Under the pieces are notes generated by a model that ran no database searches, was not told the origin of the DNA, and saw only the letters and a list, made by a program, of their open reading frames with translations. A program made the position numbers and the translations under genes. This document shows, piece after piece, positions 28,982 to 31,441 of a DNA stretch of 35,991 bases. The DNA is from a virus: UHGV virus genome UHGV-0222783; one strand, given 5' to 3'. Numbering within the stretch: position 1 is the first letter of the stretch; each line of letters begins with the position of its first letter.

Positions 28982-29332
28982 CTAATTTTTATTCTTTGAT
29001 CTCGTCCACAGGTAAAGAAGAGCAATGGCAAGACAGGAAACAGAGAATAGATAACCTACCTCATATGGTGCGCCAAAAAAATTAGCTATTGATACGGGCA
29101 AAAAAGCCGAAGCGATCAGAATTGAAAGGCAAAAAATAAGCCCAGTAACATAGTTTATTAAACTCTTAAATGAGAAACGTTTTGCTTGATTTACGGTCTC
29201 AGCGAGTGATCGCTTAACGATGGATAAAAGCAAATAGATGGCGACAGTAGCTAATGCCCCTTTCCACCAGTCTGGATATAGTTTTGCGACAATCAGCCCA
29301 AGGAAAACCATGATGACAGACTGAGCATTCAC
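28982..29332 (-). CDS. small polytopic inner-membrane protein (116 aa); candidate superinfection-exclusion protein by position
   Basis: GTG start at 29332 preceded by a perfect AAGGAGGT SD; about four hydrophobic helices. Sits where P22-like phages carry sieA-type exclusion genes. Confidence 0.5.
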   Translation of the reverse strand: MNAQSVIMVFLGLIVAKLYPDWWKGALATVAIYLLLSIVKRSLAETVNQAKRFSFKSLINYVTGLIFCLSILIASAFLPVSIANFFGAPYEVGYLFSVSCLAIALLYLWTRSKNKN

Positions 29333-29507
29333 ACCAACCTCCTTAGTTTTGCGCAGGATACCAGATGATGTATAGGAGTGGGAGTAAAGTTAGTCGGTGA
29401 TAGAACGGTGGTTGCATAATGATATCACGTGACGTAAACTTATTGCGCATAGCGTGTATTCAATGGATGCATAGCTATTGATAATCTCCGATAAGAAGGA
29501 GGTTTGT

Positions 29508-30074
29508 ATGAGCAATGAGACTAATGGGATTGATGAAATGTTTAGCTTGAACGCTGCCAAAGCTGGAGTCGCAATAGGTTTGCTATTACAGCAAGCTTCT
29601 GCGTTCAGTTGTGAGGTGGTTGTTACTGATAACGTTCAGCACGCTTACCATCAATCCTCATTCAGCAGTGAACGGGCTAATGATGAGCTTCATGAGGCGG
29701 TGTCTTCGATTAAAGAATTGTCTCGAATGCTGAAATACGCTTATCGTGTTCTTGCAAACGCTACCGATGAGAATGTAGACAATGTGTTGTCTATCATTGA
29801 ACCAGAAAAGTCTCGATTGATAGAGCATCAATTGAGAGGACTTGAAGGGGCAATGAAATCGGTATTCAAAGAAGCTTCTGCTGATTTTAAAGAGATCGCA
29901 AGAGATATCTATATCGTTGTTGCTGATGCCAGATCTGCCGTAACCAACCTGAATAGTCTTATTAAACAACGCTCATGTGTTCCGGTTGTTTTTGATAGTT
30001 CCGTAGATATGGCTGGTTTGCGTGCGCTTGCTGAGCACGGGACTCGTGTGTTTCACTCTGGTAACTTCCACTGA
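29508..30074 (+). CDS. hypothetical protein (188 aa), first gene of an accessory two-gene operon
   Basis: ATG 29508 after strong SD AAGGAGG. Predicted helical; no family recognised by eye. Confidence 0.5.
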   Translation: MSNETNGIDEMFSLNAAKAGVAIGLLLQQASAFSCEVVVTDNVQHAYHQSSFSSERANDELHEAVSSIKELSRMLKYAYRVLANATDENVDNVLSIIEPEKSRLIEHQLRGLEGAMKSVFKEASADFKEIARDIYIVVADARSAVTNLNSLIKQRSCVPVVFDSSVDMAGLRALAEHGTRVFHSGNFH

Positions 30075-30082
30075 GGTAAAAC

Positions 30083-30532
30083 ATGCAAGTAACCGTGGAA
30101 TATAATCAGGATAGTTTTGACTATTTTTTCTCCCCGGTTTTTGTTGAGTTTCCTGATTTAAAACAAACACTTGTAGATGATTTTATCATCTACAAGTCTA
30201 CGGGAACGTTGCCCAGCTATTTTGGCAGAGACACCTCTTATCATCGACCTCCTGATATTGAAGATGCAGGCCTTATGCACCTTCATTTAGCAATTGGTGA
30301 AAATAAATTTGAGCCAATAAAAAATGGCACAGATATCAGCACACCGCAAAAGTTGCAGTGGCATAAAACATCCAATACCGCTCTCGTTTATGCACAAAAT
30401 CTTTTTGATGAGAACAGGTATTCATTGATTGCTCTTTTTCATCCTGTAGCTCACATGTCTGCTAACAATCATAATAGAATGAGAGTGTTAGCAGGGTATG
30501 CGAGAGACTTTAGAAACACTATGTTTGACTAA
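30083..30532 (+). CDS. hypothetical protein (149 aa), second gene of the accessory operon
   Basis: ATG 30083, 8 nt after the upstream stop. His-rich motifs (HLHLA, FHPVAH). Followed by an intrinsic terminator. Confidence 0.5.
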   Translation: MQVTVEYNQDSFDYFFSPVFVEFPDLKQTLVDDFIIYKSTGTLPSYFGRDTSYHRPPDIEDAGLMHLHLAIGENKFEPIKNGTDISTPQKLQWHKTSNTALVYAQNLFDENRYSLIALFHPVAHMSANNHNRMRVLAGYARDFRNTMFD

Positions 30533-30533
30533 A

Positions 30534-30556
30534 CCCACCGTCAGGTGGGTTTTTTA
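30534..30556 (+). terminator. intrinsic terminator between convergent operons
   Basis: cccacc-gtca-ggtggg hairpin then tttttt, placed between the plus operon end (30532) and the minus ClpP-like gene end (30581). Confidence 0.6.
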
Positions 30557-30580
30557 TAAGGAGTAATCATGATTTACCCA

Positions 30581-31117
30581 TCAAACAACCCACCAGTTTG
30601 CCTGATTGGATGCCAGCCTTGCAGTTTTTATGGAATTAATTATGCCATGCTCAAGAGCCTTGTTAGCATCCAAAATGGTCGAGTCTGCTATCAGGGATGC
30701 CCACCTAATATGGGTTCCGATGTCGATATTGAACGTCTCAACGAAGCGATCAAGATCGTTATCGAGGCATTTCCCGTACTCTCTCAATCTGGCATGGTCG
30801 GCGGCTGGGGAGGCAAAGCACCATAATAGAGGATGTAACAGGAATCTTGATAATGGGTTTGCGAAACGTTCTGAGCCAGCCAGGAAAACGATATTAGCTA
30901 TGGATTCAACATTGCTTATGTTGTGAGTTCTAACGGTAACAGGGAGTGACTTAAGAAAGTTATACGCAGTAAAGCCAGCAGCAGTTTCCCCTCCCTGACT
31001 TGATATATGGATATTTAATTCAGTTGCGCCTTGAGATAATGCGGTGAGACAGTGGTTCTGAAGTTGCCCAACAGTGGCAGTGTTAACAGGGCATAAGAAA
31101 TGAATTGTGTGCAGCAT
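30581..31117 (-). CDS. ClpP-family serine peptidase homolog (178 aa)
   Basis: By-eye alignment to E. coli ClpP: [23 protein letters not shown] vs [51 protein letters not shown] vs [32 protein letters not shown]. The catalytic Ser and His positions appear conserved. ATG overlaps the Mnt-like stop (TAATG). Confidence 0.6.
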   Translation of the reverse strand: [178 protein letters not shown]

Positions 31118-31365
31118 TATTTTTCATCCTTAGCATACATGGTCTTTAGCGTCTCAAGTAGCGCCTCTTTGAATTTATCAGCTTCTTGCTGAGCAAATGA
31201 CTCAACTGACTTTGGCGACCTATCTTCATCAATCGCGGCTTGCAAAATCATGACGATCTCGGAGTTAACAGAGCGACCATTTTTTGATGCTCTGACAGCA
31301 AGAGCCTCGCGTAAAGATTCAGGGATTCTTACCGTAGTTGGAGAAATTGACACACCCTTTGCCAT
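31117..31365 (-). CDS. Mnt/Arc-type ribbon-helix-helix repressor
   Basis: MAKGVSISPTTVRIPESLREALAVRASKNGRSVNSEIVMIL... is an RHH motif (compare P22 Mnt ..REKLKFRAEANGRSMNSELLQIV). ATG at 31365. Confidence 0.7.
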   Translation of the reverse strand: MAKGVSISPTTVRIPESLREALAVRASKNGRSVNSEIVMILQAAIDEDRSPKSVESFAQQEADKFKEALLETLKTMYAKDEK

Positions 31366-31388
31366 ATAACACCTTTGGTATTCAATTT

Positions 31389-31441
31389 GATAGCAAAGTG
31401 TATGCAAAAAAATTTTGACTAGATATACTCACTTTGCTATC
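31389..31441. promoter_or_regulatory. divergent promoter/operator region with 12-bp perfect inverted repeat
   Basis: gatagcaaagtg (31389..31400) and its reverse complement cactttgctatc (31430..31441) bracket a TTGACT -35-like hexamer, between divergent RHH repressor genes. Confidence 0.5.

Follow-up and report, generated by a model that had tools for sequence, protein, structure and literature searches.

In the virus genome UHGV-0222783, the 35,991 nucleotides of which form the window analyzed here, two adjacent genes between the ejection genes and the tailspike gene probably constitute a toxin-antitoxin cassette of a non-canonical type II. The second open reading frame, ORF2, encodes, judged by profile and sequence comparison, a homolog of the YafO toxin family; the first, ORF1, encodes a member of an unnamed protein family whose gene accompanied the toxin gene in all 54 related loci with a readable neighbor.

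Pairing of the two genes

The association holds when approached from either gene. A PF13957 gene was found immediately downstream in all six look-ups made from ORF1 homologs, the most distant members included. Loci fetched through the toxin came from nine bacterial genomes, 28 IMG/VR viral contigs and annotated phages, and an ORF1-family gene lay directly upstream on the same strand in 48 of the 48 with upstream sequence; one more locus (L050) begins inside the toxin gene, so that its upstream gene is unreadable, and stands outside the count. The only YafO gene seen without an ORF1-type neighbor was that of K-12 yafNO, which was fetched separately as reference. An earlier sequence-only reading of the window had suggested comparative genomics as a check on whether the two genes move together; over these 54 loci they do travel as a unit between unrelated phages.

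The carriers are diverse. They include P22-like prophages of E. coli and of Salmonella houtenae and diarizonae, with the pair in the same slot; the lambdoid siphovirus HK639, with the pair between tape-measure and minor tail genes; E. coli phage PhiR40_1, where it stands at the genome end; Pseudomonas phages, where it adjoins integrase or cI; and the E. coli 30EVA2 prophage, where it adjoins a tRNA-dihydrouridine synthase remnant. The pair also occurs in genomes of Buttiauxella, Serratia, Pluralibacter, Enterobacter, Pseudomonas putida and an Orbaceae bacterium. We found no paper characterizing the ORF1-YafO pair in the literature, in which phage YafO genes have been treated as toxins without a recognized partner (PMC10449497) and just 8% of the clusters formed by YafO partners in E. 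coli have been scored as known (PMC10790755).

The YafO-family toxin homolog

ORF2 matches Pfam PF13957 (YafO_toxin) with 78.9 bits where the cut-off is 25 (E 3.4e-22), the match spanning positions 3-101 of the 101 in the profile. With E. coli K-12 YafO it shares 38% identity across 120 residues (E 7e-20). When 19 sequences, K-12 YafO among them, were aligned, 17 columns were invariant, the FGRD motif included, and ORF2 keeps every one (D33, F34, Y37, P44, F47, G48, R49, D50, Y53, H66, L101, Y103, E110, A117, P121, H124 and M133). The RefSeq entry for the protein, WP_001198454.1, is already named "type II toxin-antitoxin system YafO family toxin". By these comparisons ORF2 is a YafO-family toxin homolog and a predicted mRNA interferase of the RelE/ParE superfamily. 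The YafO family has been placed in that superfamily, with gene order antitoxin then toxin (PMC11980606), and K-12 YafO binds the 50S subunit of 70S ribosomes, mRNA being cleaved 11-13 nt downstream of start codons (PMC7781912). A sequence search of the PDB found no YafO-family proteins.

The sequence-only reading recognized neither protein, which fails for ORF2, in view of the Pfam scan and the RefSeq name. Its suggestion that the bicistronic unit is a module of the toxin-antitoxin or abortive-infection type gained support from the homology of ORF2 to a toxin family. The pair has the generic form of a type II module: two small adjacent co-oriented genes, partner first, tightly coupled.

Both reading frames show the marks of selection on protein sequence. 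Relative to orthologs in Salmonella and other P22-like prophages, the proportion of synonymous differences (pS) is 0.71-0.82, near saturation, and that of non-synonymous differences (pN) is 0.21-0.29 for ORF1 and 0.07-0.10 for ORF2; the ratio of the corresponding rates (dN/dS), where measurable, is at most 0.2 for both and 0.06-0.2 for ORF1. Because synonymous sites are near saturation and non-synonymous differences few, both are real genes, and they are under strong purifying selection.

Damaged copies of the toxin gene were also seen. An A6 run at about 30318..30323 has lost one base (A6 to A5) in at least five independent samples (L057-L061), which yields a 114-aa YafO without Y103, E110 and H124; in these ORF1 is intact and the upstream sequence has no mismatches in 815 positions. 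In one IMG/VR contig a T run close to ORF2 codon 15 is longer by one T (L031:4040-4050), and a 90%-identity cluster representative (P0029) has D33H at an otherwise invariant residue. Sequencing error is possible, yet loss of the toxin alone is the usual decay pattern of toxin-antitoxin loci, and because it is expected of such pairs the truncated alleles weakly favor a toxin-antitoxin identity. Disruption in near-identical phages had been named beforehand as something that would count against the idea; such disruption does occur in near-identical prophages, in the toxin and with ORF1 intact, and we read it as weakly supportive.

The partner family

ORF1 has no Pfam, NCBIfam or PADLOC family; its sole matches are in PHROGs, to phrog_8416 and phrog_22162, both of unknown function. 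Twenty-nine members of its family compared with Pfam gave no credible match, the single match being at chance level (E 0.0073). The family comprises six clusters in a word-indexed search and 23 representative clusters in a profile search among 1.84 billion proteins; all the public names listed in its clusters are "hypothetical" or "uncharacterized". The exact ORF1 protein is present on at least 1000 contigs. Profile comparison of the family with YafN gave an hhalign probability of 0.25%, and on this sequence comparison ORF1 is unrelated to YafN (Phd/YefM family). The GenBank record PV340560 (PhiR40_1, L009:222-761) labels its ORF1 homolog "YafM antitoxin", a name for which no paper was found; K-12 yafM is presumably a different kind of gene, and the label may mislead.

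The AlphaFold2 (AF2) model of ORF1, with a predicted local distance difference test score (pLDDT) of 73, is all-helical: residues 16-38 form a helix, 36-53 make up a linker modeled with low confidence, 54-156 fold confidently into a bundle, and the C-terminal helix (168-183) is again less confident. Fold searches returned generic helical bundles only, nothing informative, and a sequence-profile search of the PDB with the family gave only chance-level matches, to parvalbumin and to the fusion-peptide region of paramyxovirus F (E 0.01 or higher). Conserved motifs are LRGLE, A-ARS---LN-L--Q and F-S-ID--GL--LA-HGT, with FH at the end; the best conserved sequence, with A-ARS---LN-L--Q, F-S-ID--GL--LA-HGT and the final FH, lies in the C-terminal third. 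The most conserved segment (approximately 162-179) has the lowest model confidence (pLDDT 45-61), as may be expected of a part that folds on its partner. An alternative start at Met11 was ruled out, a strong ribosome site preceding Met1 in most clades, and so was a lipoprotein reading of the conserved Cys35, the -1 position being too variable (S, C, P, H, Y, N or G) for a lipobox.

Organization of the unit

The sequence-only reading had put the open reading frames, their spacing, AAGGAGG, the divergent gene for a membrane protein and the terminator hairpin in the right places (Table 1).

Table 1. Features of the two-gene unit and its immediate neighbors in the window.
Feature	Position	Strand	Description
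Divergent membrane-protein gene	28982..29332	-	116 aa, four hydrophobic segments
Conserved divergent regulatory region	29333..29507		between the minus-strand cargo gene and ORF1
Mirrored ribosome-binding sites at both ends of the region	ACCAACCTCCTT 29333..29344; AAGGAGGTTTGT 29496..29507		inverted repeat I1
Candidate sigma-70 promoter for the pair	29412..29440	+	TTGCAT 29412..29417, 17-nt spacer, TAAACT 29435..29440; read from sequence
Shine-Dalgarno AAGGAGG of ORF1	29496..29502	+	5 nt ahead of ATG
ORF1	29508..30074	+	188 aa
ORF2 ribosome site GAGG	30073..30076	+	overlaps ORF1 stop codon (TGA-GGT-N5-ATG)
ORF1-ORF2 gap	30075..30082		8 nt
ORF2	30083..30532	+	149 aa
Intrinsic terminator	30531..30555	+	9-bp stem 30531..30539/30544..30552, core CCCACC/GGTGGG, 4-nt loop, T6 run
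ClpP-like gene	30581..31117	-	178 aa; Pfam CLP_protease 44 bits; 27% identical to K-12 ClpP

GGAGG-type sites precede the equivalent ORF1 start in most loci of the family. From its sequence the ORF1/ORF2 junction is a translational-coupling junction, as predicted from the overlap of stop codon and ribosome site; the majority of distinct junctions inspected, in a range reaching from Enterobacteriaceae to Pseudomonas phages, again show the 8-nt gap and TGAGGT, and in several related loci the toxin start is TTG. The terminator hairpin folds at -14.9 kcal/mol (z = -2.85 vs shuffles); it was missed by a simple terminator scanner. In most other contexts, too, the toxin stop is followed by an equivalent GC hairpin and T run, with a sequence that differs in other clades. 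Matches to Rfam elements (type I/III antitoxin RNAs, riboswitches) were only sub-threshold and fell on the terminator hairpin. Inside ORF2 a 13-bp perfect inverted repeat with a 3-nt loop (30169..30197), followed on the minus strand by a T-rich tail, encodes VDDFIIY with self-complementary codons; 8-bp arms are kept in Salmonella relatives and not in other clades, and the repeat is probably a by-product of the peptide sequence.

When six P22-like loci were aligned, the divergent intergenic region showed 75% mean column identity with long invariant blocks, and its conservation greatly exceeds that at synonymous sites in the genes on either side. Its first 37-63 nt are found also in many E. coli prophages without the pair. 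The candidate promoter, read from the sequence, has TTGCA and TA-ACT invariant in all six aligned loci; the consensus promoter scanner did not report 29412..29440.

The sequence-only reading had pointed to a palindrome and short repeats in this region. They are present, the palindrome TCACGTGA at 29425..29432 within the spacer of the candidate promoter, and are not meaningful. By simple arithmetic a stretch of 175 bp should hold about 0.66 8-bp palindromes, and at the same spot the orthologous regions have CCATGTAT, TCATGTCA or TCACGTCA; chance frequency and lack of conservation rule the palindrome out as an operator. A repeat search found a sole inverted repeat, namely the two mirrored ribosome-binding sites, and three short direct repeats of two copies each, a class often due to chance. 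No LexA box (CTGT-N8-ACAG, at most one mismatch) occurs in 29333..29507, and LexA/SOS control as in K-12 was rejected.

Proposed mechanism

The unit 29412..30555 would be mobile, self-contained cargo (a "moron") lodged between ejection gene 16 and immI (mnt/arc/ant) of a CUS-3-like P22-family prophage of E. coli K1. ORF1 would be made first and in excess, with translation of the toxin depending on coupling and, in several relatives, on a presumably weak TTG start. The ORF1 product would then bind and neutralize YafO, probably through its most conserved and least confidently folded C-terminal segment (approximately 139-188). If the supply of ORF1 stopped or ORF1 were destroyed, free YafO would act like K-12 YafO and arrest translation. 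Possible triggers are shut-off of host transcription by a superinfecting phage, or prophage loss, and the benefit would probably be abortive infection or exclusion of competing phages, prophage retention, or both. That the pair serves anti-phage defense specifically is a tentative reading, somewhat on the doubtful side.

Weighing the interpretation

Several observations weigh against a toxin-antitoxin cassette. For ORF2, the match to NCBIfam PRK09885 (YafO; E 4e-22, 79 bits) is below the equivalog cut-off of 153, so the protein is a family member and not the ortholog of K-12 YafO, and its AF2 model, with mean pLDDT 42.9, was unfit for fold search, the RelE-like (BECR) fold not being confirmed. 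ORF1 is longer than the toxin, and no DNA-binding domain of the helix-turn-helix, ribbon-helix-helix, AbrB or Phd type was found in it that might serve autoregulation. The search against PADLOC that the sequence-only reading recommended came out negative, neither protein matching a defense-system model: in PADLOC-DB v2.0.0 ORF2 had no match and ORF1 only a chance-level one to ZorA (E 0.0039). On the favorable side, pairwise distances in ORF1 and ORF2 are correlated (r = 0.91 for 33 distinct pairs), ORF1 diverging faster (mean distance 0.61 vs 0.47 for ORF2), which fits co-evolution; such covariation of adjacent genes can also come from linkage alone.

The remaining difficulty lies in the N-terminus of ORF1, judged by crude hydropathy and charge analysis. 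In 25 of 29 family members the N-terminus contains a hydrophobic stretch (Kyte-Doolittle maximum of 1.5-2.4 in an 11-residue window), in 22 of 29 net positive charge precedes it, and AxA-like motifs follow it in many relatives, as in PhiR40_1, where MNPFNAITFAALCGPLACPAAMA is followed by QEF. Such a signal-peptide-like terminus would be hard to reconcile with a cytoplasmic antitoxin. It raises an unlikely alternative in which ORF1 is exported or membrane-associated and the pair is a two-compartment system, the envelope-facing partner controlling or reporting to cytoplasmic YafO, or being removed by export; the variable low-confidence linker after the N-terminal stretch and the failure to find a DNA-binding domain would also suit it. 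Several points oppose this. In the window's own clade an acidic segment (net -1 to -4) precedes the stretch, unlike a typical Sec signal. The hydrophobic core, GLL(L/M)QQ (GLLLQQ in that clade), keeps its sequence among relatives sharing 29-40% identity with ORF1, as a signal peptide and nothing more would not usually do. A transmembrane helix would be longer and less polar than the stretch, and the close coupling in translation to a toxin of cytoplasmic type speaks for partners that meet in the cytoplasm. The acidic segment and the conserved core therefore argue for a structural or interaction helix. It is quite unlikely, in particular, that ORF1 is exported or membrane-engaged in a way that ties control of YafO to the Sec pathway or to envelope state; the neutralizer might then be continuously drained by export, or might sense disturbance of the inner membrane during phage DNA injection.

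Returning to the toxin-antitoxin cassette, one may ask whether it works for the lysogen at all. The pair could serve the lytic program of the phage, as a regulated nuclease for shut-off of host mRNA together with its modulator, and not defense or addiction of the lysogen. In HK639 it is embedded among the late tail genes and points the same way as they do, in the window it shares the orientation of the late operon ending at gene 16, and mRNA cleavage of the YafO type would suit host shut-off (PMC7781912). A lytic role is nevertheless improbable: in nearly every context the pair brings with it a conserved promoter-like region and a terminator, and its positions (integrase, cI, genome ends, the sieA slot) are typical moron sites. 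These positions, the near-identical prophages with a truncated toxin, and the prophages that have a near-identical left junction and hold other cargo in the slot lead us to regard the pair as dispensable for lytic growth.

We give still less credence to the idea that ORF2 is degenerate and no longer toxic, the pair having an unrelated role in lysogenic conversion. The sub-equivalog score, the circulating frameshifted and D33H alleles and the unconfirmed fold could be taken that way, but all family-invariant residues are kept, purifying selection on ORF2 is very strong (pN as given above, at saturated synonymous sites), and strict retention of the partner is what an active toxin would enforce. 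Identity as virion or assembly components, set beforehand as a refuting outcome, has in its favor only the location beside ejection and tailspike genes and is effectively ruled out, since neither protein has a virion-protein homolog in Pfam, PHROGs or NCBIfam, the pair is far from structural genes in other phages, and sister prophages hold unrelated cargo in the slot.

Cargo slot, neighboring genes and host

Around the pair are gp10, ejection proteins, a gp16-like protein, Arc/Mnt-like repressors, Ant and a 981-aa tailspike, a gene order from which the window is recognized as a P22-family prophage; we take it to resemble CUS-3. Chromosomal prophage DNA of 50-odd complete E. coli genomes, including ATCC 11775, S88 and APEC O1, matches the 1.2-kb region with 100% identity; among the matches listed the named serotypes are all K1 and the hosts mainly human and avian. 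The region had no DNA-level match among phage-collection records and none in the plasmid collection. In the ATCC 11775 type strain (L001:9758-12060) the prophage is otherwise identical and has ISEc12 (IS21-family) inserted between ant and the tailspike gene, an element not in the window.

The slot itself had been described by the sequence-only reading as a cargo hotspot, and this is borne out: other P22-like prophages carry a Panacea-domain gene there (E. coli K_EC180, L051:3869-4318) or a PIN-domain gene with an upstream partner (E. coli ST131 4433, L052:3628-4886). With such cargo in sister prophages, the gene 16-immI region is a genuine exchange site for cargo of the toxin-antitoxin type.

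On their sequences, the genes on either side of the pair are independent cargo, or appear so. The divergent 116-aa protein has no family match. RefSeq starts it at an ATG at 29311 (109 aa); the longer form is suggested by a conserved AAGGAGG, 5 nt beyond which lies a GTG at 29332. In every locus compared the gene at the divergent position is unrelated, and the leader and ribosome site are common to all. The protein was thus ruled out as a third component, being unrelated between loci, and as SieA, lacking its motif. On the other side, the ClpP-like protein aligns catalytic Ser and His with K-12 ClpP, the Asp being ambiguous, and its gene abuts and is co-oriented with an Arc/Mnt-like gene (31120..31407). 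It was ruled out as the antitoxin protease, being absent beside the pair in P22-like loci L002-L007 and absent in E. coli PSJ-36.

Conserved linkers bound the cargo slots. The one at 29333..29369 holds the minus-strand gene's leader and ribosome site, CCAACCTCCTTAGTTTT, and is common to many prophages with different cargo on both sides. The one after the terminator (30556..30571) holds an orphan ribosome site and ATG, ATAAGGAGTAATCATG, which starts a 61-aa gene in other loci; in the window this ATG runs into an 85-aa reading frame antisense to the ClpP-like gene and looks like a recombination scar.

Relation to known systems and significance

The pair resembles K-12 yafN-yafO (part of the operon dinB-yafN-yafO-yafP) in its PF13957 toxin, 38% identical with the invariant residues kept, and in having partner first, toxin second and tight spacing. 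The partner differs: ORF1 is not YafN/Phd/YefM-like, is twice as long, is all-helical in its model and has no recognizable DNA-binding domain. ORF2 in turn has an N-terminal region about nine residues longer than that of K-12 YafO (residue 29 corresponds to K-12 residue 20; 149 vs 132 aa). The cassette of the window, unlike yafNO, is phage-carried and stand-alone with its own terminator, is not in an SOS operon and has no LexA-box-like site upstream.

The "orphan" YafO proteins of phages (HK639 gp18; Pseudomonas vB_PaeS-D14C and D14L; YMC11/02/R656) belong to the same YafO clade, with 32-60% identity, and in D14L, YMC11/02/R656 and HK639 the upstream partner family and the 8-nt junction are as in the window. 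Publications and records give the toxin alone with a "hypothetical" neighbor (PMC10449497), the exception being the one "YafM antitoxin" record.

Prophage cassettes of other kinds share the same general plan, and partner swapping among toxin-antitoxin modules is a well-known phenomenon. As with Panacea-domain antitoxins and prophage-encoded defense cassettes, a known toxin domain is here joined to an unrelated candidate neutralizer in a cargo hotspot; ORF1, however, is not Panacea (DUF4065) nor any other catalogued antitoxin domain, and the pair, whose defense role is a proposal, has no PADLOC model. P22 sieA occupies the same slot, between gene 16 and gene 9, and the P22 prophage expresses it (PMC10883804). 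SieA acts as a single inner-membrane protein by blocking the injection of DNA, whereas the unit of the window would be a nuclease pair; the SieA motif FxRYPxEAxxFNK, read for directly, is absent from ORF1, ORF2 and the divergent 116-aa protein.

The toxin is a new member of a known and already annotated family; the ORF1 family and its pairing with this toxin clade appear undescribed. Phage-borne YafO proteins, reported as solitary, thereby gain one defined partner family, which has no Pfam or NCBIfam model and no informative name. ORF1 becomes a testable candidate antitoxin for a prophage toxin clade common in extraintestinal pathogenic E. coli (ST95/K1), Salmonella, Enterobacter and Pseudomonas, and the gene 16-immI slot of P22-like prophages is documented as a site of toxin-antitoxin-type exchange bounded by conserved linkers of ribosome site and leader. 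If the signal-like N-terminus were functional, the control logic would be unusual, and coupling to Sec or the envelope would be a logic not described for RelE-superfamily toxins. Should the defense reading be true, the pair would add a YafO-based module to those known for abortive infection.

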